From Candidatus Jordarchaeia archaeon (GTDB lineage: Archaea > Asgardarchaeota > Jordiarchaeia > Jordiarchaeales > Jordiarchaeaceae): a DNA stretch of 13,478 bases. The position numbers and the translations under genes are program-made. The stretch is taken from assembly GCA_029856435.1 (NCBI GenBank), contig JAHQXB010000053.1, forward strand, positions 1 through 13,478. Reading direction: 5' to 3'. Shown piece after piece: positions 2,363 to 12,814 of this stretch (its first letter is position 1; every line of letters starts with the position of its first letter). The notes under the pieces are model-generated. The model ran no database searches, had not been told where the DNA came from, and worked only from the letters and a program-made list of their open reading frames with translations.

Positions 2363-2379
2363 TTTTGGGAGTAGCTTTT

Positions 2380-3105
2380 ATGCCCTACGATCCATTAGAG
2401 TTGGCTAGAAGAACTGAGCAAATTGTGTTGCGGGGAGAGGACAAACTATACTATCGTTTCAGGGGAGGACAATGGTATGGGGGAATCGCCACCGCAGACT
2501 GTTGCGGATGCCCCCTAAGATGCGTCTTTTGCTGGGGAGCTGAGCCCCGAGATAATCCCAAGGGCTACGGGCGTTTCTACTCCCCAGAGCAAGTCTTCCA
2601 AAATTTGATCCACATAGCAGGGAAGAGGGGGTACTCTCTGATTAGAATTAGCGGCAACGAACCCACATTGGGAAGAGAGCACCTCATCAAAATCTTGGAG
2701 ATGGTCGAAAAAACACGTTACACATTTATTTTGGAAACTTCAGGAATATTGCTGGACAGGGACTACGTTAGCCAGCTATCCCAGTTCAAAAACCTGCATG
2801 TAAGAGTCTCTTTGAAGGGGGCCTGCGAGGAAGAATTCTCAAGACTCACAGGCGCAAAACCCGAAGGATTCCAGCTACAGCTGAAGGCACTAGAGAACCT
2901 TGTGGAACTCGGAGTTTCCTGCAACGCAGCCTTGATGTCCTCATTCAGCACCAAAGAAAACATAACACAACTAATCATCCGGCTCTCCCAAATAAGCGAC
3001 AAACTATCCTCAGAACTAGAAGACGAAATCGTCATCCTCTATCCCAGAGTCCAAAAAAGACTACGAGAAGCAGGAATACACCCCTTCACCTTCTGCACAC
3101 CATAA
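2380..3105 (+). CDS. Radical SAM protein of unknown function (resembles the COG5014-type archaeal family)
   Basis: CxxxCxxC motif (CPLRCVFC) within RFRGGQWYGGIATADCCGC. Also RISGNEPTL, FILETSGILL and VRVSLKG. Start moved to ATG 2380, which has GGGAG at 2367-2371; the track uses TTG 2365. Confidence 0.88.
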   Translation: MPYDPLELARRTEQIVLRGEDKLYYRFRGGQWYGGIATADCCGCPLRCVFCWGAEPRDNPKGYGRFYSPEQVFQNLIHIAGKRGYSLIRISGNEPTLGREHLIKILEMVEKTRYTFILETSGILLDRDYVSQLSQFKNLHVRVSLKGACEEEFSRLTGAKPEGFQLQLKALENLVELGVSCNAALMSSFSTKENITQLIIRLSQISDKLSSELEDEIVILYPRVQKRLREAGIHPFTFCTP

Positions 3106-3167: not shown

Positions 3168-3234
3168 TAGAAAATTTTCGAAAGGGTACTTTGCGTATCT
3201 AGAATTTTTTCTAAAGATGGGCAAAAAGTTATAA
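3168..3234 (+). promoter_or_regulatory. Two near-palindromic sites plus BRE/TATA of thiolase 1
   Basis: TAGAAAATTTTCGA (3168-3181) and TAGAATTTTTTCTA (3200-3213), 32 bp apart, followed by GCAAAAAGTTATAA (3221-3234). Confidence 0.4.
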
Positions 3235-3317
3235 GGATATCGGCATCAACGGATTTCCGTACCAAAAAATCAAAAATTTGCGCTAGAATCTGATTGAGAT
3301 GTTGGAGGAAACCTGAA

Positions 3318-4493
3318 ATGAAGGAACCAGTAATTGTGGGTTACGTAAGAACACCCATTTCAAGGTCACGTCCAAGAGAGCCGGAAAAAGATGTTTTCAA
3401 CAGCATTCGAGCAGACGACATGGCAGCCATGGTAATTAGAGAAGTAGTGAAGAGATCCGGAATAGACCCCAAAAATATTGACGATTGCATTTTTGGATGC
3501 GCCAACCAGACCGCTGAACAATTTGCCTATGGAGGACGCATGTTTAGCCTCATGGCAGGCCTGCCACTTGAAGTAGCAGCACTAGCTTGTGACAGACAGT
3601 GCGCCTCAGCCATGTCCTCAATCCACATTGGTGCCATGGAAATAATGACTGGCTTTTCGGATGTGGTGGTTGCTGGTGGAGTTGAACACATGACCCACGT
3701 ACCCATGGGACATGGAGTAAATCCCAACCCGAACGCTTTAAAGATGGAGAAAAGGTTCGACTGGCTGGTAGCCATGAACATGGGCCTAACAGCTGAAAAA
3801 CTGGCGGCAGAGTCAGGAATACCGAAAAAGGAGCAAGATGAATGGTCTGTAAGAAGTCACCAGCTAGCTGCAAAAGCCCTGAAGGAGGGCTTCTTCAAAG
3901 GCGAAATAATGCCCGTTGAAGTGACGCTGCCTGACGGAAAGAAAACAGTGATTGAAACAGACCAAAGCATTAGGCCAGACACCACACTGGAAAAAGTCGC
4001 TTCTCTGCCTCCCGCATTTAAGCCGGATGGAATAATAACTGCTGGCAACTCCTCTCCTCTAAACGCTGGTGCCGCCGCTGTAATGTTGATGAGTAAAGAG
4101 GCAGCCAAAAAATACGGATTAGAACCTATGGCAACCATTAAATCTATGGCCTGGGCGGGCGTCGACCCTAGCGTAATGGGTAAGGGCCCAGTACCCGCAA
4201 GCCAAAAGGCGTTAAAGGCGGCAGGCCTCAAAGTGAAGGACATAGACTTCTGGGAAATAAACGAAGCCTTCGCAATAGTAACTCTATACGCCATAAAACA
4301 GTTGGGAATAGACCCCGAAAAAGTGAATGTTAAAGGCGGAGCCATAGCCCTCGGACACCCACTGGGAATGTCCGGAACCAGAATAACAGGAACCCTAGCC
4401 CGCATACTGGAAAAAGAAGGAGGCACCTACGGCCTGGCAACACTGTGTGTGGGCGGAGGACAGGGCGCAGCTACCATAATTAAAAGAGAGTAA
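3318..4493 (+). CDS. Acetyl-CoA C-acyltransferase (thiolase), catalytically intact, 391 aa
   Basis: Nucleophile Cys in DRQCASA (TGC 3600-3602), NEAF, GGAIALGHP and second Cys in LCVGGGQG (TGT 4446-4448). ATG 3318 has GGAGG at 3304-3308. Confidence 0.95.
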   Translation: MKEPVIVGYVRTPISRSRPREPEKDVFNSIRADDMAAMVIREVVKRSGIDPKNIDDCIFGCANQTAEQFAYGGRMFSLMAGLPLEVAALACDRQCASAMSSIHIGAMEIMTGFSDVVVAGGVEHMTHVPMGHGVNPNPNALKMEKRFDWLVAMNMGLTAEKLAAESGIPKKEQDEWSVRSHQLAAKALKEGFFKGEIMPVEVTLPDGKKTVIETDQSIRPDTTLEKVASLPPAFKPDGIITAGNSSPLNAGAAAVMLMSKEAAKKYGLEPMATIKSMAWAGVDPSVMGKGPVPASQKALKAAGLKVKDIDFWEINEAFAIVTLYAIKQLGIDPEKVNVKGGAIALGHPLGMSGTRITGTLARILEKEGGTYGLATLCVGGGQGAATIIKRE

Positions 4494-4530
4494 GTAAAAA
4501 CCATCCTCCGAAGAAAAATACGCTTCAAAC

Positions 4531-4559
4531 ATTTTTATTTTTTAAAGTATTATTTTTTT
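4531..4559 (+). terminator. Putative oligo-T terminator of thiolase 1
   Basis: Three T-runs (T5, T6, T7) starting about 38 nt after the stop codon. Confidence 0.45.
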
Positions 4560-4700
4560 AGCGAAAAATCTGGAAAGGTTTATAGCGGGTTCTTTGCAAC
4601 TTGCGATTTTTTAGGGTTTTCTTTATTAGGAACATTGTTACAAGTATGTAGTTTGTTGACATGGTATGTGTGCAGGGTTAGCCAGTCTTGCCATTTTTTT

Positions 4701-4793
4701 GGGCTTATTTGGAAAGAAGCCTTGTAGAGTGTTAGGCGGCCCAAAACGTATAACTTCCATATATGGGGCTTCATATTTGGAATGAAGCCTTGT
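4701..4793. repeat. Two-copy palindromic direct repeat with a 40-nt spacer
   Basis: GGGCTT---ATTTGGAAAGAAGCCTTGT (4701-4725) and GGGCTTCATATTTGGAATGAAGCCTTGT (4766-4793). The 19-nt cores match at 18 of 19 positions. Confidence 0.65.
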
Positions 4794-4869
4794 TAAGCCT
4801 CCCTTTTTTTGGAGGATCAAACGATTATGTATGGAGGGAAGCCACACACTTAAAGACTAGGTCCCTCTC

Positions 4870-5005
4870 GGCTTTGGGACAAAGTTATGTTTCCCGATGC
4901 GTAATCCCAAATGACGTAGTGAAAGAGTATTGTTTTTCGTCGCTGATACGACCCCTAGTGACAAAAAAGCTAAGAAGAAGCTAAAACCAATTTTGTCCCA
5001 AAGCC
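4870..5005. mobile_element. MITE-like non-autonomous element, 136 bp
   Basis: Perfect 14-bp terminal inverted repeats GGCTTTGGGACAAA (4870-4883) / TTTGTCCCAAAGCC (4992-5005). Flanks GTCCCTCTC (4861-4869) and GTCCTTCTT (5006-5014) match at 7 of 9 positions. No transposase inside. Confidence 0.7.
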
Positions 5006-5114
5006 GTCCTTCTTTATTAGTTAAAAACAAATATAAGAGGAGTGGCTCCAGAATTCTATAGCTGTGACGGTATTTTTGGTTTCCCTTTTGGATGTGGTAG
5101 TAGGAGGAAGTTTT

Positions 5115-6281
5115 TTGAGAGAAGCGGTTATTGTGGACTATCTGAGGACGCCCATTTCCAAGGCTGATCCTCAGCAGGATTTCTACAAGAATATGCGTAT
5201 GGATGATCTCTGCGCTCTGGTCATTAGGAAGTTGGTTGAGAGAGCAGGTGTGAGGGCGGAGGAAATAGAGGAGTGCATCATAGGGTGCTCTAATCAGGGT
5301 GGGGAGCAGTGGACTTATGGTGGCAGAATAATTAGTCTTATGGCGGGTCTTCCCTTCTCTGTGGCGGCTTTGGGTGTGGATAGGCAGGGTGCCTCCTCTC
5401 TGGAATCTGTTTCCATAGCTGCTATGGAGATAGCCCAGGGATACGCAGACATAGTGGTCGCAGCAGGTATGGAACACATGTTACATATGCCCATAGGGGC
5501 GGGTGTGAATCCCAGCCTACAATTTTTAAATATTGGCTCCTTTGACGCCTTAACCTCTCTAAGTATGGGATTATCGGCGGAAAAACTTGCTCAGAAATTT
5601 TCTGTTTCAAGAGAGGAGATGGACCGGTTTTCTCTCCAAAGCCACATGAAGGCCGTTAAGGCTCAGAGGGAAGGATTCTTCAAAGAAGAAATACTCCCCA
5701 TAGAAATCATACTGGACGATGGAAGCAGAAAAATTGTTAGCTACGACCAAAACGTTAGACCAGACACCAGCCTAGAAAAATTGTCAGCTCTGCCGCCAGC
5801 ATTCAAGGAAAATGGGCTGATAACTGCGGGAAACTCCACCTCCCTAAACGATGGTGCAGCAGCATGTATCCTCATGTCAAAGCAGAAAGCCCAAGAGTAT
5901 GGACTTAAACCACTGGCAAAAGTAAGAACTATGGGCTGGGCGGGAGTTGACCCCACCCTAATGGGTTACGGGAACATACCTGCAATTAGAAAAACTTTGG
6001 AGAGAGCAAAACTTAAGGTGGAGGACATTGATTTCTGGGAAATAAATGAGTTATTCGCAGTCATAGTGCTGGTCGCTATTCGGGAACTAAACATAAACCC
6101 TCAGAGGGTCAATGTTAAGGGAGGAGCCATAGCCCTAGGACATCCCACCGGAATGAGCGGAGTGAGAATAGTGGGAACGCTGGCAAGAATACTAAACAAG
6201 GAAAATGGCAAATATGGAGTAGCCTCAACTGCGGCCGGAGGTGGACAGGGCCAAGCAATCCTCCTAGAAAAGAGTGACTAA
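5115..6281 (+). CDS. Thiolase-family paralogue lacking both catalytic cysteines, 388 aa
   Basis: Collinear with thiolase 1 end to end. DRQG replaces DRQC, STAAGGGQG replaces TLCVGGGQG, NELF replaces NEAF, and GHP is retained. TTG 5115 has GGAGGA at 5103-5108 and gives MREAVIVDYLRTPIS, matching MKEPVIVGYVRTPIS. Confidence 0.92.
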   Translation: MREAVIVDYLRTPISKADPQQDFYKNMRMDDLCALVIRKLVERAGVRAEEIEECIIGCSNQGGEQWTYGGRIISLMAGLPFSVAALGVDRQGASSLESVSIAAMEIAQGYADIVVAAGMEHMLHMPIGAGVNPSLQFLNIGSFDALTSLSMGLSAEKLAQKFSVSREEMDRFSLQSHMKAVKAQREGFFKEEILPIEIILDDGSRKIVSYDQNVRPDTSLEKLSALPPAFKENGLITAGNSTSLNDGAAACILMSKQKAQEYGLKPLAKVRTMGWAGVDPTLMGYGNIPAIRKTLERAKLKVEDIDFWEINELFAVIVLVAIRELNINPQRVNVKGGAIALGHPTGMSGVRIVGTLARILNKENGKYGVASTAAGGGQGQAILLEKSD

Positions 6282-6310
6282 CTAACCTCACAAAATATCC
6301 GTTAAATGGG

Positions 6311-6333
6311 TGGGGGCTTATACCATACCCCCA
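6311..6333. terminator. GC-rich stem-loop between convergent genes
   Basis: TGGGGG (6311-6316), 11-nt loop, CCCCCA (6328-6333), lying in the 57-nt gap between two stop codons. Confidence 0.3.
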
Positions 6334-6338
6334 AAGAG

Positions 6339-7031
6339 TTAGTGTGAGGGCTTGTTTCTGGTTATTATGTCTGGCTTGTTTGTGACTATTCCATCCACTC
6401 CCAACATGATAAGGTTCTCAGCGGTATTTGCATCGTCTACGGTCCAGGCAAAGATGTTTAATCCATGACCGTGAACATTTTGCACCATTTCCCAAGACAC
6501 ATATTTATAGAATGCGCAGATGTTTTCCGCTCTGGCGTCCAGTGCCAGCATACTGGGGTTGATGGGAGAGGAGCGAATTATCACCCCGGTCTTGGCTCTA
6601 GGGTTCAACTCCTTTACCCTCTTCACACTTCCATGTATAAAGGAACTAAACATAACCCTATCCAAGGCATCGTACTTTTCCACTATACTTAATACACGCT
6701 CCTCTATCCCCCCAGTTTTTAACTCAATTATCAACATTGCTTTATTTCCCACTAACCCAATAACTTCTTCAAGAAGAGGGATTTTTTCTCCCTTACCTGC
6801 ATCCAGACTCCGAAGCTCCACTAAAGACATGTCTCTGACTCTTCCACTTCCATTCGTGGTTCTGTCCACAGTTTCATCGTGTATCACCACAATGTTTCCC
6901 TCTATGGTTGACCTTACGTCAATCTCTACGCCGTCCACCTCAAAATCCAGAGCTCGCCTCACAGCCCTCAGAGTGTTTTCCGGCTCATAAAAACTCGCAC
7001 CCCTATGAGCAATTACAAGCGGCTTTTTCAA
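6339..7031 (-). CDS. Glycerophosphodiester phosphodiesterase (GDPD; GlpQ/UgpQ family), 230 aa
   Basis: IAHRGAS..PENTL, EIDV, VVIHDETVDRTT, IIELK, AWTVD and DGIVTNKPD motifs. TTG start. Confidence 0.95.
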   Translation of the reverse strand: MKKPLVIAHRGASFYEPENTLRAVRRALDFEVDGVEIDVRSTIEGNIVVIHDETVDRTTNGSGRVRDMSLVELRSLDAGKGEKIPLLEEVIGLVGNKAMLIIELKTGGIEERVLSIVEKYDALDRVMFSSFIHGSVKRVKELNPRAKTGVIIRSSPINPSMLALDARAENICAFYKYVSWEMVQNVHGHGLNIFAWTVDDANTAENLIMLGVDGIVTNKPDIITRNKPSH

Positions 7032-7067
7032 GCAAACACACCCACTTCAAAAGTTTTTACTGCTTGT

Positions 7068-7478
7068 CTATGGTGTTCCTATCACTTGCATAATTATTCT
7101 ACGAGTTCTGGGGCCGTCTAGTTCCAGGTGTAGGATTCTTTGCCATGTGCCTAGTGCCAGTTTTCCGTTCTCGACTGGTATGGTGAGTGAGTTTTTGGCG
7201 AAGCTTGCTGCTATGTGGGCTGCGGCGTTGGTGTCGATTTTGTCGTGGTTGTAGTCCTTTCTGGTGAAGGTTTCCTGTATCCATCTTTTTATGTCTTTTA
7301 GGAGTCCGCTCTCATTTTCATTTATTATTAGGGTAACGGTTGTGTGGAGTGTGTGGATGAAGGCTATCCCCTCAGTTATTTTTGACTCCTCTACCAATGA
7401 TTGAACTTCACTGGTTATGTCCCTTAGCTCAACTCGTTCGCCCGTTTTAACCTCAACTTGTTTGGTAAATATCTTCAC
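7068..7478 (-). CDS. yjbQ: YjbQ/UPF0047 family protein (secondary thiamine-phosphate synthase-like)
   Basis: HTT..LIINE, YNH...NAAAH and LALGTWQRILHLELDGPRTR motifs. Start set at GTG 7478, with GGAGG 10 nt upstream; the track starts at 7508. It ends 36 nt before the GDPD start, so the two are probably co-transcribed. Confidence 0.9.
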   Translation of the reverse strand: MKIFTKQVEVKTGERVELRDITSEVQSLVEESKITEGIAFIHTLHTTVTLIINENESGLLKDIKRWIQETFTRKDYNHDKIDTNAAAHIAASFAKNSLTIPVENGKLALGTWQRILHLELDGPRTRRIIMQVIGTP

Positions 7479-7640
7479 TCCTTCTAAGCCTCCAACAATT
7501 ATTAACACATATTTTTAGGTGGGTCTCTTTATTCAGTTTTTTGTTTTGCGCCCAATTTTTATGTTCTCTTTGAGGTATTTCTTAAATAGTTGTTGGGAGG
7601 ATACTAACCTATGGATTAAAAGTATCAGGATGTATTTTTG

Positions 7641-7835
7641 ATGGTGACTGAAGGATTCGCAGTTATGAAATGTCCCCACTGCCAAAACAGCATAGGCATC
7701 TACTATGTAATGAGCTTAAAAAAGGGCAAGGCGGCGGAAAACACAGATTTCAACTGTCCCCACTGCAACGAAAACGTAGCACTGGAAATAAGCAAGGTAG
7801 CAGTTGACAAATTTAACGGCTTCCAATCCCCATAG
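7641..7835 (+). CDS. Small Zn-finger protein (CPHC-x24-CPHC); start uncertain (7611, 7641 or 7665)
   Basis: Two identical CPHC knuckles in a 56-64 aa ORF that fills an otherwise empty region. Confidence 0.7.
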   Translation: MVTEGFAVMKCPHCQNSIGIYYVMSLKKGKAAENTDFNCPHCNENVALEISKVAVDKFNGFQSP

Positions 7836-8070
7836 AGCGCAACTAGATCCTGCCGCACAACCTTTTAAGTTGCAAAACGGGCATCAAAATAAATAAGAAC
7901 TTTCCAAAGAAAAAACAAAATTATGCAACGAGGCACACAATTGGAAAATTTAATAAGCTCAATTTTGGGAAACTGAAACTAAAAGACCTCTACAAATTCG
8001 GGAGTTAAAAGATACCCTTAGAAAAATGGGAATCGAGAGATTGAGCTGTTCCTACTCTTTATGATAAGAG

Positions 8071-8694
8071 GTGAAAAAATTGAGATTCGTGGTTTTGGCA
8101 GACATTCACAGCAATATGGAAGCCGTGGAAAACGCCAAGAAATATATTGAAGAAAAGAAGCCCAACGCTGTGCTCATCTGCGGAGACATAACACACTCGG
8201 GAAAAGAGGAGGAGGCCAAAAAAATAATTGGGAAGCTTGCTTCAAGTGGAATACCTGTATTATATGTTTGGGGGAACATGGACCGCGTAAAACCCGACAC
8301 CCAACTCCAGGGAGTCAACGCCACCTGTCTCCACGGCAAAAAGACCGAGTTTGGGGACATCGAACTCCTGGGACTAAGTGGCAACGCATGGGGCTACGAT
8401 TTCCTCAGCACCATAGAAAAGTCACAAAAACCCCTAATAATAGTGTCACACGAACCACCCGAAGGCTGCCTAGACGTGACTTGGAACGGAAGCCACGCAG
8501 GAGACCCTCAAATTAGAAACTTCATAGAAAAAGTGCAACCAGACCTAATGGTTTGCGGCCACATACACGAAGCCCGCGGAGAAGCAAACATCGGCAAAAC
8601 CTTGGTGTGCAACGTGGGAAAACTGGGCAGCGGAAACATACTAACCATAAATATAAAAAACAACCACATCAGCGTGCAAAGAGACAGAATCTAA
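8071..8694 (+). CDS. Calcineurin-like metallophosphoesterase (Icc-related), 207 aa
   Basis: DIH, CGD, GNMD, SHEPP and CGHIHE metal-binding motifs in the canonical order. GTG start. Confidence 0.92.
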   Translation: MKKLRFVVLADIHSNMEAVENAKKYIEEKKPNAVLICGDITHSGKEEEAKKIIGKLASSGIPVLYVWGNMDRVKPDTQLQGVNATCLHGKKTEFGDIELLGLSGNAWGYDFLSTIEKSQKPLIIVSHEPPEGCLDVTWNGSHAGDPQIRNFIEKVQPDLMVCGHIHEARGEANIGKTLVCNVGKLGSGNILTINIKNNHISVQRDRI

Positions 8695-9460: not shown

Positions 9461-10166
9461 AGAGGAAAACACATCTTAACAGACAACTTTTTCCAAAAAA
9501 GTTTCCCAATTCCCTCTAAACCCTCTCTCACAGTGTTCCAAGTGCGTCTAATAACAGAAAAAAGTCTTTGTATTTTAGGTTCAGGATGTTTACCCACCCA
9601 GAGAGCTGATGTTACAAGTCTAACCCGAAAAAACCATGAAGGCTATATGTTAATAAGTATCCCTAAAATAAACCTCTTGCACTGCCAAGAGTAAACCCTC
9701 TGTAAAGCCCTCATCGACCCCGGCACACATTATACCTTTTTTTAACAAATTATCAGATTTTTGCTATAAAACTATTTATTTATATTTATTTGATGGAAGT
9801 TATTTTTATATCTGGAGGGATGCTAAATAGAAGGAGTTTCTGGTACTTGCAAGTTGGCTAGTGACTCAATTAACAGTTTAAATTGGTTTAAAGCGGGATA
9901 TTTTTAATCATCTCCTTGTTCTTGAAGGCTATATGAGATTCATTAGCATCAGTATTTGTTTCTACATCTTCTGTTTCTGCTTTGCTAATGTTGCGGTGAT
10001 TTACATTTTCAAACTTTCTAGGGAGTGGGCTAGTGATGGTTCGTTGTGGGGTGTTTCTCCGTTCGCGGCTGTTGTTCAAATTTTTTGGTCAGGTTTTTGG
10101 GCGGGTAGTTTTAAAAAGTTTTTCTGGTAAATCTATTCTGGCTTGTACTTGTGGAGTTGGTTTTTT

Positions 10167-11639
10167 ATGAAGGTTAGGGTTCCTCGGTGTATGAGTTCGC
10201 AGCATCCGGATAATGTGAGGACTCCCTTTTTTGCTGGTCACAGTGTTATTGGTGGGGATGATGAGATAAGGGAGGCTTACTATGTTTTTTCGCATTTGGG
10301 GTGTGATGAGCAGATGTGGGATGCGGAGGGGAAGGAGGTGGACGATTTTGTGGTGGTGAAGCTTTTATCTAACTATGATTACTTTTTCAGGGAGAAAAAG
10401 CTGGGGAAGGATGTTTTTCTCACTCTGCGTGTACCCAACCCCGCAGTTGAGAGAGCGGAGGGCAAGGTGCTTATTGAAACACTGGACAGTATACCCCGCT
10501 CCTTTGACGTTTCCAAAATTTTTTATGGTGAAGATTTAGCACCTATATTTGAAGTCATTCTTCCCATGACCCAATCCCCTGAACAACTTAACAGAGTCTA
10601 TTTCTACTACAGGGAGTTCGTGGTGGGCAAACAGCACAAGTCCTGCTTCAAAGGGGACATTCCCCTTAAAGAGTGGATAGGCGAGTTTAAACCCGAAGAA
10701 ATCCACGTAATACCCCTAGTTGAAGACATGGTCAGCATGCTTAAAGTGGACCAAATAGTTAGAGGGTACCTCAAAGATAAAGGTTTTGAGTATCAGAGGG
10801 TTTTCCTGGCCAGAAGCGACCCTGCCTTGAACTATGGCTTGGTTTCGGCAGTGTTACTAAACAAGATAGCCCTCCACAAATTGAGTTTGCTGGAAGAAGA
10901 ACTGTCGGTGGACATCTATCCCATACTGGGTGTGGGCTCGCCTCCATTCAGAGGAGGAATGACACCCCTATCGGAAAGTCAGGTTCTGGAAGAGTATCCC
11001 AGCGTGCAAACCTTCACTCTCCAGTCAGCCTTCAAATATGATTACGCCGAACAACAGATTGTGGAGTCAATAAAAAGAATAAAGGAGAAAAAAAGGGGAA
11101 AACCACAAGAGTTAGACGTGGAATACTACCAAAAAATATTGGAAAACTTGACGAGGGAGTATGAGGAGGAAATAGTGGAAATAGCTCCCCTAGTAAATCG
11201 ATTGGCACCATACATTCCACAGAGAAGGAAAAGAAAGCTGCACATAGGTCTCTTTGGATATTCTCGAGGAGTAGGAAGAACCACTCTACCCAGAGCTATA
11301 ACTTTTTGTGCCGCACTCTACTCTCTGGGCATCCCCCCAGAGGTCTTGGGTCTCTCTGCGCTGAGCCCGAAACAAAGGGAGGCAGTAACCGAGATTTACA
11401 AATGTTTCGAAGAACACATTTCCTCCGCCCTACAATACCTGAACCAAGACAACCTCAAACTTCTGCTTCCCAGCTTAGCAGAAAAAATCCGAGAAACGGC
11501 CAAAGAATTCGAATACGAAACCAACCAAGAACACAAAAAACTAACTACGCAAATCGTAAAACTTTTCAAACAAAACGAAGCCGCAAAAATGCAAGAAAAA
11601 ATCATTGAGGCCGGAGCCCTAAGAGGATTCTTGGGATAA
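10167..11639 (+). CDS. ppcA: Phosphoenolpyruvate carboxylase, archaeal type
   Basis: PRCMSSQHPDN, DEQMWDAEGK, LRVPNP, FEVILPMT, IPLVED, RVFLARSDPALNYG, GVGSPPFRG, QSAFKYD, HIGLFGYSR and LPRAITFCAALYSLGIPPE. ATG 10167 has GGAG at 10153-10156. Confidence 0.96.
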   Translation: MKVRVPRCMSSQHPDNVRTPFFAGHSVIGGDDEIREAYYVFSHLGCDEQMWDAEGKEVDDFVVVKLLSNYDYFFREKKLGKDVFLTLRVPNPAVERAEGKVLIETLDSIPRSFDVSKIFYGEDLAPIFEVILPMTQSPEQLNRVYFYYREFVVGKQHKSCFKGDIPLKEWIGEFKPEEIHVIPLVEDMVSMLKVDQIVRGYLKDKGFEYQRVFLARSDPALNYGLVSAVLLNKIALHKLSLLEEELSVDIYPILGVGSPPFRGGMTPLSESQVLEEYPSVQTFTLQSAFKYDYAEQQIVESIKRIKEKKRGKPQELDVEYYQKILENLTREYEEEIVEIAPLVNRLAPYIPQRRKRKLHIGLFGYSRGVGRTTLPRAITFCAALYSLGIPPEVLGLSALSPKQREAVTEIYKCFEEHISSALQYLNQDNLKLLLPSLAEKIRETAKEFEYETNQEHKKLTTQIVKLFKQNEAAKMQEKIIEAGALRGFLG

Positions 11640-11692: not shown

Positions 11693-12814
11693 TTAATCTT
11701 CGAATTTCGCTATCTCCACATTGGATACTTCTGTGTTCCACCAAGGCTTGCTCCATTTTTCTGGAGATTCGGGAATTATTCTCAAGAGCTCCTCCACTCT
11801 AGAGAATATGGTGTTGATTTCCTTGTTTTTAGCACCAAACTTTTTCAGGACGCCTTCATTGTTAAGGATCATTTCTAGGTTCAGCCTTACCGTTTTCCTG
11901 AACTTTTTGTCCTTTTCTAGGATTTTTGCAATTCTTTTACCATTTATTTCCTCGTTGCCCCCTTCCCCGATGGGGTGGTCTAGCAGTTCTGCACAGACAT
12001 CCTTTATATCCTTGTCCTCCATCCCGATGACTATCTTGTTGTGGTCGTAGTGGCTGTTACAGGAGAGTATCCTGTGTTTTAGCCCCTCCTGCTCCAACTG
12101 CTCCAAAACGCTTCTGGGATGATCCTCAATGAATTGGCACTTGGTCAGAAGCATGTTTTCAAGCCCGATGGTGTAAAGGGTTTTTTCAGGGGGCTGGGAT
12201 AGTTCTGGTCTTACATCTATCTTGTGACGCATGTTTATCTCTTCGGTGAGTATATCCATGTAGCCCGCTACTGGAAGGCCCTCCCCATCTATGGAGTCAA
12301 TGGCCCTCACCCTCCACCTTTCTCCCCTCCGCATAGCGCTGAAAACCTTGTCAGAGAGCAGCATAAAGTGGGTATACATGCTTCCATACATTTCCCCAAG
12401 GCACAGTAGTAGGTTCTTCACTGTGGCTCCCTGTTTCTTAGAACAAATGAGGTCTACATCCTTCATAACTCGGTTAAAGGCACTACCCTCCACGTTGGTG
12501 CTGGGACAGTGAATTTTGAAGGCTCCACCACCGAAGAGTAAAATGTTTAGAGACTCGTTGCTGATTTTTGATTTTCCAATACACCCCTTTATCACATTTG
12601 GAAATTCTAGGTGGAGTTGACCCGCATGTTTCGCTGCCCAAATTGAAACCAGAGCTCTTTTCATGGGGAGATAATCCAAGTTGATGTAGTCTGGTAGGTT
12701 TAACTCTTTGAGAATTTCGGCGGGGTCCACACGCGACACTAGTGGAACTTCAATTTCTATGATTGTTCCTCCCAATTCTTCACATAACCTAACTTTTCTT
12801 GTCTTAGGATTCAA
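11693..12814 (-). CDS. Nucleotidyltransferase-fold protein (Pol-beta superfamily; AbiEii/MenT-like motif layout), function unknown
   Basis: ILLFGGGAF...NRVMKDVDLI (hGG-xn-DxD), a candidate third Asp in YMDIL, and LLTK...KDIKD. 373-aa ORF with a TTG start. Confidence 0.7.
   Translation of the reverse strand: MNPKTRKVRLCEELGGTIIEIEVPLVSRVDPAEILKELNLPDYINLDYLPMKRALVSIWAAKHAGQLHLEFPNVIKGCIGKSKISNESLNILLFGGGAFKIHCPSTNVEGSAFNRVMKDVDLICSKKQGATVKNLLLCLGEMYGSMYTHFMLLSDKVFSAMRRGERWRVRAIDSIDGEGLPVAGYMDILTEEINMRHKIDVRPELSQPPEKTLYTIGLENMLLTKCQFIEDHPRSVLEQLEQEGLKHRILSCNSHYDHNKIVIGMEDKDIKDVCAELLDHPIGEGGNEEINGKRIAKILEKDKKFRKTVRLNLEMILNNEGVLKKFGAKNKEINTIFSRVEELLRIIPESPEKWSKPWWNTEVSNVEIAKFED

Follow-up and report, generated by a model that had tools for sequence, protein, structure and literature searches.

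A FadA-type thiolase paralogue without catalytic cysteines beside an intact thiolase in an Asgard archaeon

Thiolases are the textbook case of covalent cysteine catalysis, and to our knowledge all FadA-type and biosynthetic thiolases characterised so far are homo-oligomers made up of active subunits. Type II polyketide synthases contain the KS-alpha/KS-beta (KS/CLF) pairs of the thiolase superfamily, in which the gene of the active subunit adjoins that of a conserved and needed paralogue without the nucleophile. CLF has Gln at the cysteine position, acts on ACP-bound substrates and is co-transcribed with KS. Dead paralogues that activate a live partner, called prozymes, have been described for AdoMetDC of Trypanosoma (PMC5201418) and for PRMT1 (bioRxiv 10.1101/776112). 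The chemistry of thiolases needs an acyl-cysteine intermediate and a second cysteine that serves as acid/base (PMC3406046), and CurH, a non-thiolytic member of the family that hydrolyses a C-C bond, needs both cysteines as well (PMC11407993). Here we describe two adjacent FadA-type thiolase genes, thiolase 1 (T1) and thiolase 2 (T2), in a stretch of 13,478 nt of contig JAHQXB010000053.1 (the whole stretch is called the window below). The contig belongs to a genome of 3.54 Mb in 181 contigs from an Asgard archaeon (Freyarchaeia/Jordarchaeia). T1 is an intact thiolase and T2 is a paralogue that has lost both catalytic cysteines. We propose with moderate confidence that T2 is a thiolytically inert pseudoenzyme of the FadA type and a partner of an active thiolase.

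Catalytic residues and selection

T1 and T2 share 55% identity over 390 residues, and both consist of the Pfam domains Thiolase_N and Thiolase_C (E-values of 3.7e-64 and 8e-43 for T2). Against the NCBIfam family PRK06445 (acetyl-CoA C-acetyltransferase), for which the curated equivalog cut-off is 511, T1 scored 606 and T2 520.1 bits. T1 carries the motifs DRQC-AS, INEAF, GHPLG and TLC-VGGGQG. It has the complete Cys/Asn/His/Cys set that a preliminary description made from the letters of this stretch had stated, and the set was whole in all 8 T1 orthologues. The same description had placed Gly at the nucleophile and Ala at the acid/base cysteine of T2, and this was correct to the base (Table 1). 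The segments NELF, GHP and ITAGNS were all present in T2, with AAT (6045-6047) as the codon of Asn311, and the open frame and the ribosome-binding site ascribed to this gene were found as well. T2 thus retains the Asn and His that form oxyanion hole 1 of a competent thiolase and has neither of the two cysteines.

We searched for homologues among 5.8 billion proteins. Eight cluster representatives were 79-100% identical to T2 and all remaining matches at most 61% identical; its identity to active thiolases was 55-61%. The Gly/Ala pair occupied the cysteine positions in 12 of the 12 distinct T2 orthologues (79-100% identity), and the remaining full-length sequences among the best 120 matches all carried Cys/Asn/His/Cys. 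The same two substitutions were present in independent assemblies from JGI, NCBI, Logan and ENA. Since the codons vary synonymously among the orthologues (GGT/GGG for Gly92 and GCG/GCA for Ala373), it is the protein sequence that is maintained here, and read errors do not account for the two residues. A read error in the Ala codon had already been doubted, rightly, because GCN is two base changes away from TGY. In two T2 orthologues (P0007 and P0008, of L037 and L039) we observed a cysteine one residue past the lost acid/base cysteine (SSACGGGQG), which is not the canonical position; in the other orthologues this residue is Ala, Thr or Ser.

Further, we compared the DNA of 8 loci, which came from four genomes of the genus (G000, G006, G008 and G010) and four metagenome contigs. 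The pairwise ratio of nonsynonymous to synonymous substitution rates (dN/dS, NG86) was 0.03-0.08 for T2, with dS reaching more than 1.5. The same genome pairs gave 0.04-0.20 for T1, with dS values that ran up to saturation, so the ratio is as low for T2 as for its active neighbour. The frame of T2 was open in every orthologue and its TTG start was kept in 8/8 orthologous loci. The GTG at 5064, which is the listed start of the open reading frame, lies upstream of the TTG start conserved in all T2 orthologues, and some gene callers extended the frame upstream to 393-404 aa. In each of the 8 loci for which enough DNA was available, T2 followed T1 directly, in the same orientation. T2 has lost catalytic residues and is under purifying selection, which is how a pseudoenzyme is defined. 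The preliminary description had suggested a maintained, non-thiolytic protein, and this core idea is backed by the recurrent double loss of cysteine, the recurrent adjacency to an intact thiolase and the dN/dS values well below 1. The opposite case, in which close orthologues keep the cysteines and dN/dS is near 1, is excluded by the same observations. Because both cysteines are lost and the mechanism depends on an acyl-cysteine and an acid/base cysteine, T2 would be unable to act as a thiolase, either in thiolysis or in Claisen condensation; this is expected from the established covalent mechanism.

We wanted to see which other residues were altered in T2, and compared it with 127 active homologues. 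Positions conserved in at least 95% of the family were regarded as family-invariant. T1 retained 110 of 110 such positions and T2 105 of 114. Five of the nine losses in T2 fell in catalytic fingerprints or the pantetheine loop (Fisher p = 0.016), namely Cys92Gly, Pro243Ser, Ala313Ile/Leu (the Ala of NEAF), Leu345Thr (after GHP) and Cys373Ala. Other changes fixed in the T2 clade were Ser242Thr, Met127Ile, Ser97Glu, His100Ser, Glu20Gln and Thr371Ser, together with Tyr285 and Asn/Asp287, which adjoin the VMG fingerprint. Residues were altered in all five fingerprints; unchanged were Asn311, Glu312, Phe314, Gly342, His343, Pro344 and the GGGQG loop. The bulkier Ile/Leu at the NEAF Ala could, judging from the expected geometry, fill the space of the two lost sulfurs. 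The fold of T2 is predicted to be intact, because its AlphaFold2 model was confident (pLDDT 89.9, pTM 0.91) and matched FadA of the Pseudomonas fragi beta-oxidation complex as the best structure in PDB (1wdk_C, TM 0.94, root-mean-square deviation (rmsd) 1.7 A); Salmonella FadA was a further top match. In sum, T2 retains the fold and most constraints of the family, and what has been specifically rebuilt is the catalytic centre.

At the eighth residue past the nucleophile, on helix N-alpha-3, T1 has His (residue 103) and T2 has Ser (residue 100), and in a second Asgard pair of thiolases, described below, the order is reversed, with His in the dead copy and Ser in the live one. This asymmetry could mark an asymmetric dimer contact. 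It was noticed post hoc, and Ser occurs there in 12/150 of the wider representatives, so it was not used as evidence.

Genomic setting and other thiolases without the nucleophile

Among 11 species-representative genomes of the class, T2 was restricted to the genus of the window. It was whole in the four genomes named above, and in G009 the pair was split over contig ends. In G007 we did not find T2, and neither T1 nor the flanking GDPD gene was found there. In the sister family the T1 orthologue was present and T2 was absent. That orthologue lay either among genes for acyl-CoA dehydrogenase and enoyl-CoA hydratase or beside an SCP2-type thiolase/DUF35 pair accompanied by methylmalonyl-CoA mutase.

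Each of the two genes is preceded by a conserved promoter-like element (Table 1). The spacer between T1 and T2 measured 621 nt in the window and 183-284 nt in relatives. A T1-T2 operon was rejected on the grounds of the separate conserved promoters, the T-tracts after T1 and the spacers of 183-621 nt. A regulon shared by T1 and T2 was rejected too: the boxes close to their promoters differ, and neither AGAATTCT at T2 nor ACGGAtttCCGT at T1 had another copy in promoter context in the genome. If these are operators, their regulators would act on single genes, because neither box recurs in such a context elsewhere. The pairing of T1 and T2 in the preliminary description therefore stands as to adjacency, but not as an operon, given the long spacer and the promoter-like element that each gene has of its own.

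The insertion between the genes lies directly upstream of the T2 promoter, which stays intact. Its first repeat element (4630 to approximately 4870) has dozens of copies in the genome, while the second (4869-5006) has about five and ends in terminal inverted repeats of 18 nt (4869-4886 and 4989-5006). The insertion was absent from G010. G008 carried a different insert of 60 nt at the same site, which duplicated part of the promoter, and for this reason we regard the site just upstream of the T2 TATA box as an insertion hotspot.

Other genes near T1 and T2 encode the radical SAM protein, GDPD, YjbQ and a metallophosphoesterase, none of which has an evident link to acyl-CoA metabolism. The radical SAM protein did not match any specific NCBIfam family above cut-off. 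A functional link of T1/T2 to its gene, which lies upstream, was rejected, as the gene is absent beside the T1 orthologue of the sister family. There was no DUF35 gene in the window or in any orthologous locus, and no FadB-like gene near T2. Genome-wide, we detected 13 matches to acyl-CoA dehydrogenases. The 3HCDH domain had 11 matches, spread over seven open frames, and two of these 11 lie in one frame of 661 aa, a fused 3HCDH-type protein.

Table 1. Features of the thiolase locus in the window, and positions of the second pair of thiolase genes.
Feature	Position	Strand	Description
Thiolase 1 (T1)	3318..4493	+	391 aa, FadA-type; ATG 3318, TAA 4491-4493
Thiolase 2 (T2), Cys-less FadA-type thiolase paralogue	5115..6281	+	388 aa; TTG 5115, TAA 6279-6281
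Gly92 codon GGT, position of the nucleophilic Cys (CXS fingerprint; Cys89 in Z. ramigera numbering)	5388..5390	+	Gly in 12/12 T2 orthologues; Cys in 127/127 active homologues
Ala373 codon GCG, position of the acid/base Cys (CXG fingerprint; Cys378)	6231..6233	+	Ala in 12/12 T2 orthologues; Cys in 127/127 active homologues
Asn311-Glu312-Leu313 (NELF; NEAF fingerprint)	6045..6053	+	Asn in 12/12; NEAF Ala replaced by Ile/Leu in 12/12, Ala in 127/127 active homologues
His343-Pro344-Thr345 (GHP fingerprint; His343 is CAT 6141-6143)	6141..6149	+	His in 12/12; Leu replaced by Thr in 12/12, Leu in 127/127 active homologues
Ser243, pantetheine loop (AGNSTS)	5841..5843	+	Ser in 12/12 T2 orthologues; Pro in 127/127 active homologues
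T1 BRE/TATA-like element CAAAAAGTTATAAG	3222..3235	+	kept in 8/8 loci, approximately 95 nt upstream of ATG; putative promoter by archaeal consensus
Inverted repeat ACGGAtttCCGT	3249..3260	+	just downstream of the T1 TATA-like box; conserved with variation across loci; unique in the genome; putative operator
Two oligo-T tracts	4532..4559	+	directly past the T1 stop; conserved in the close relatives G008 and G010; likely archaeal terminator
Insertion of approximately 380 nt, two adjacent multicopy repeat elements	4630..5009		flanked by the 11-nt direct repeat TTCTTTATTAG (4619-4629, 5010-5020)
T2 BRE/TATA-like element AAACAAATATAAG	5025..5037	+	AAATATAAG (5029-5037) within it identical in 8/8 loci; putative promoter by archaeal consensus
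Palindrome AGAATTCT within the conserved block CCAGAATTCTATAG	5050..5057	+	at the expected transcription start; conserved in 6/8 loci, nearly so in the other two
Shine-Dalgarno GGAGG	5103..5107	+	7 nt before the TTG start; present in 8/8 loci
Radical SAM protein gene	2365-3105		246 aa; syntenic with T1/T2 across the genus
Archaeal-type phosphoenolpyruvate carboxylase gene	10143-11639		Pfam PEPcase_2, E-value 4.8e-192
373-aa open reading frame	11693-12814	-	converges with the phosphoenolpyruvate carboxylase gene; no Pfam match
Second dead/live pair of thiolase genes	L056:6001-8687, with the two genes at 6001-7335 and 7377-8687; G206:C2:24267-26943; G218:C293:2063-4739; G275:C120:5496-8171; G275:C17:27578-30240		

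We surveyed 149 of the 150 nearest cluster representatives at 50% identity, which together with T1, T2 and P0033 gave 152 aligned sequences. All four catalytic residues were kept in 133 of them. Besides T2, four clusters lacked the nucleophile, and each of these lacked the His too; the tree requires at least 5 independent losses of the nucleophile. One of the four, a FadA-like thiolase (L058:6001-7137), has Gly/Asn/Asp/Asn and lies in a phenylacetate (PaaABCD-type) cluster, where its neighbours encode a 4HBT thioesterase, a KAS-III-C/DUF35 fusion, an SCP2-type thiolase and an acyl-CoA dehydrogenase.

The fourth cluster, from another Asgard family, consists of a dead thiolase of 444 aa in which Asp stands at the nucleophile position, Asn replaces His and Ser replaces the acid/base cysteine. 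Its gene lies 42-56 nt upstream of that of an intact thiolase of 436 aa, behind an enoyl-CoA hydratase gene. This second dead/live pair was conserved in three species-representative genomes (four pairs) and in metagenome contigs. The extra pair of one genome includes a dead copy with Trp at the nucleophile and Asp for Asn. Both genes of the pair had dN/dS of approximately 0.1, and the dead and live copies share an insertion of approximately 23 aa in the loop domain. At the position of the acid/base cysteine and the next residue, the dead copies have Ser-Cys. In the tree the two copies pair as sister paralogues with support of 100, well apart from T2. Since the tree separates the loss in this pair from that in T2, a dead thiolase encoded beside a live one has arisen at least twice in Asgard archaea. 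No fused dead/live thiolase was found among longer proteins of the family; the sole double thiolase was a nematode gene model in which both halves are active. FadB-FadA fusions do exist in the family.

Possible roles of thiolase 2

The partner reading, in which T2 is an inert companion of an active thiolase, is supported by the conserved adjacency to T1 and by the independent second dead/live pair. According to it, T2, which is under selection and would be expressed, most likely has a non-catalytic role. It would act through what it retains of a thiolase under the constraint typical of the family: its fold with the surface for dimerisation, the loop domain that binds CoA, and the oxyanion hole of Asn and His; binding of CoA esters is probably kept. 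The most plausible partner is the neighbour T1, with which T2 may form a live/dead heterodimer, like the KS/CLF pairs or the prozymes. The separate promoter of T2 suggests a conditional, modulating partner and not an obligate, stoichiometric one.

Several observations weigh against this reading. First, T1 and T2 are probably separate transcription units that are not co-transcribed, because each has a conserved promoter of its own, the repeats next to these promoters differ, a likely terminator lies between the genes and, in the window, a repeat insertion of 380 nt does so too. Second, the adjacency within one genus is a single evolutionary event. Third, two of the four other clusters without the nucleophile stand alone, with no thiolase neighbour. 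Fourth, we did not observe any T1-specific substitutions of note that would suggest co-adaptation to a partner. Fifth, the T2 clade, which had support of 100 and a long stem (0.39 substitutions per site) in the maximum-likelihood tree, grouped there, with support of 99, with active thiolases of beta-oxidation clusters, whose genes adjoin those of acyl-CoA dehydrogenase, 2-hydroxyacyl-CoA dehydratase and 3-hydroxyacyl-CoA dehydrogenase. The organisms of these active relatives were not found among the 301 Asgard representative genomes searched. Sixth, T2 is not a recent tandem duplicate of T1: a second tree likewise placed it outside the clade that contains T1, and the approximately unbiased (AU) test, for which the exact set of rows was fixed after the first tree had been seen, rejected a T1+T2 clade (p = 0.011). 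The two genes are paralogues, as described earlier, but they are not local duplicates. Finally, the strict conservation of Asn311 and His343, together with a newly fixed polar pocket (Thr242, Ser243, Tyr285, Asn/Asp287, Thr345 and Ser371), would also fit a new catalytic activity.

A broader form of the partner reading is that Asgard archaea evolved mixed live/dead FadA-type thiolases at least twice and independently, as T1/T2 and as the pair linked to enoyl-CoA hydratase. We consider this possible and put it forward tentatively. The dead subunit might hold or hand over a CoA ester, or tune the live subunit, as CLF does for ketosynthases.

The last of the points above leads to the strongest alternative, which we nevertheless regard as unlikely: T2 might be a stand-alone enzyme with a new CoA-thioester chemistry that needs no covalent acyl-enzyme. 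It would use the Asn311/His343 oxyanion hole, perhaps with a His-activated water where the cysteine thiol was, and it might cleave a C-C or thioester bond of 3-ketoacyl-CoA by hydrolysis, decarboxylate a CoA ester of the malonyl type, or catalyse an enolisation or isomerisation. Asn and His were kept in 12/12 orthologues while their neighbours became fixed as Pro243Ser, Leu345Thr, Ala313Ile/Leu, Ser242Thr, Tyr285 and Asn/Asp287, and the invariance of these changes within the clade has the look of a re-optimised pocket and not of drift. Hardly any change is seen in the loop domain, which shapes the CoA site; the gene has a promoter of its own, and T2 is under selection as strong as that on an enzyme. 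However, the new residues offer no evident nucleophile or general base. They comprise Ser, Thr, Tyr, Asn and, on helix N-alpha-3, a Glu; Glu at that position is common in ordinary thiolases. With its bulk, the Ile/Leu that replaces the NEAF Ala may block the acyl pocket. We know of no FadA-type thiolase that catalyses anything without its cysteines, and CurH depends on its own (PMC11407993). The dead copy of the second Asgard pair, with Asp or Trp at the nucleophile and the His lost, points to non-catalytic use, and a new chemistry shared by the dead thiolases is argued against by the variation of the nucleophile position across lineages (Gly, Asp, Trp).

Less probable still, T2 might be a stand-alone, non-catalytic homodimer without any link to T1, which would serve as a binder, buffer or sensor of acyl-CoA or 3-ketoacyl-CoA, or as a FadA-like core that docks a FadB-like hydratase/dehydrogenase. 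The best structural relative of T2 is the FadA dimer, which is the core of the FadB2-FadA2 complex, and such a role would agree with the family-invariant residues kept outside the catalytic centre and with the separate promoters. The genome encodes the fused 3HCDH-type protein of 661 aa and many enzymes of beta-oxidation, and FadB-FadA fusions are found in the family. This explanation leaves unaccounted for the constant position of T2 after an active thiolase of a different subclade, as well as the independent dead/live pairing in the second Asgard lineage. Moreover, T2 has no FadB-like gene nearby, and no regulon motif ties it to acyl-CoA genes.

That T2 is a decaying pseudogene, or that its cysteine losses are sequencing or assembly errors, has nothing in its favour beyond the loss of catalytic residues itself, and it is refuted by the open frames, the independent assemblies, the dN/dS of 0.03-0.08 at dS up to more than 1.5, the conserved promoter, Shine-Dalgarno site and TTG start, the synonymous variation of the Gly and Ala codons, and an Ala codon two changes away from Cys.

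In our full-text searches of the literature, neither a Cys-less FadA-type thiolase nor a live/dead thiolase pair was found described, and T2 would be the first pseudoenzyme described within the FadA-type/biosynthetic branch. The second dead/live pair suggests a recurring design and not an oddity. A mixed live/dead thiolase, if real, would be an undescribed quaternary form of a textbook enzyme of beta-oxidation. T1 and T2 are small, soluble-looking proteins.

The loss of the cysteines also matters for annotation. T2 scores above the NCBIfam cut-off, so that annotation pipelines name it a thiolase, and NCBI records name T2 orthologues acetyl-CoA C-acetyltransferase. A published metabolic reconstruction of Freyarchaeia counts two ACAT (K00626) genes (PMC11291895). 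The single gene identifier given in its supplement (number 3261) would, by its position in the gene numbering, fall at the T1/T2 locus (PMC11291895). Since T2 is annotated as acetyl-CoA C-acetyltransferase and the locus is probably included among the K00626 genes, the capacity for beta-oxidation and crotonate fermentation in these Asgard archaea may be over-counted.

Comparison with known systems

TLP1 of Mycobacterium smegmatis resembles T2 in having the thiolase fold with Gly at the nucleophile, and it has no thiolase activity (PMC3406046). Its identity to thiolases is approximately 15%, none of the five fingerprints is left, and the protein is a monomer with an extra C-terminal beta-barrel domain (PMC3406046). 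A TLP1-like nature of T2 was ruled out, as T2 is 55-61% identical to active thiolases, keeps the Asn/His and the glycine-rich loop and has no extra domain.

The steroid side-chain retro-aldolases Ltp2 and Sal likewise have the thiolase fold without the canonical nucleophile, and they perform C-C chemistry. These enzymes are part of the SCP2-thiolase-like branch; their catalytic residues are Tyr/Tyr or Tyr/Cys, and a DUF35 domain is required (PMC12329534). To judge from the numbering, these residues probably take the place of the thiolase Asn/His. We ruled out an aldolase of this kind for T2, which keeps Asn and His, has FadA-type relatives and lacks a DUF35 gene nearby. Of the roles considered in the preliminary description (a partner subunit, a sensor or a new lyase), the least probable is a lyase like Ltp2, given that Asn and His are retained and a DUF35 partner is missing.

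FadA of P. fragi was the best match of T2 in sequence (E-value 4.5e-91), with 43% identity in the structural alignment. Both proteins have the same length, the Thiolase_N/Thiolase_C architecture and the NE-F, GHP and GGGQG motifs. Unlike T2, FadA has both catalytic cysteines and is encoded with FadB, whereas T2 has Gly/Ala and no FadB-like neighbour.

T2 resembles the prozymes in being a dead paralogue selected alongside a live member of its family, although the folds and organisms differ and an activation by T2 is hypothetical. From CLF it differs in having Gly at the nucleophile, in belonging to the CoA-dependent thiolase branch, in having its own promoter and in not being a duplicate of its neighbour, and the heterodimer proposed here is hypothetical. 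With the KS/CLF pairs it shares a gene for a dead subunit beside that of an active paralogue, an arrangement that was conserved in 8/8 loci and that was found again in the second Asgard pair.

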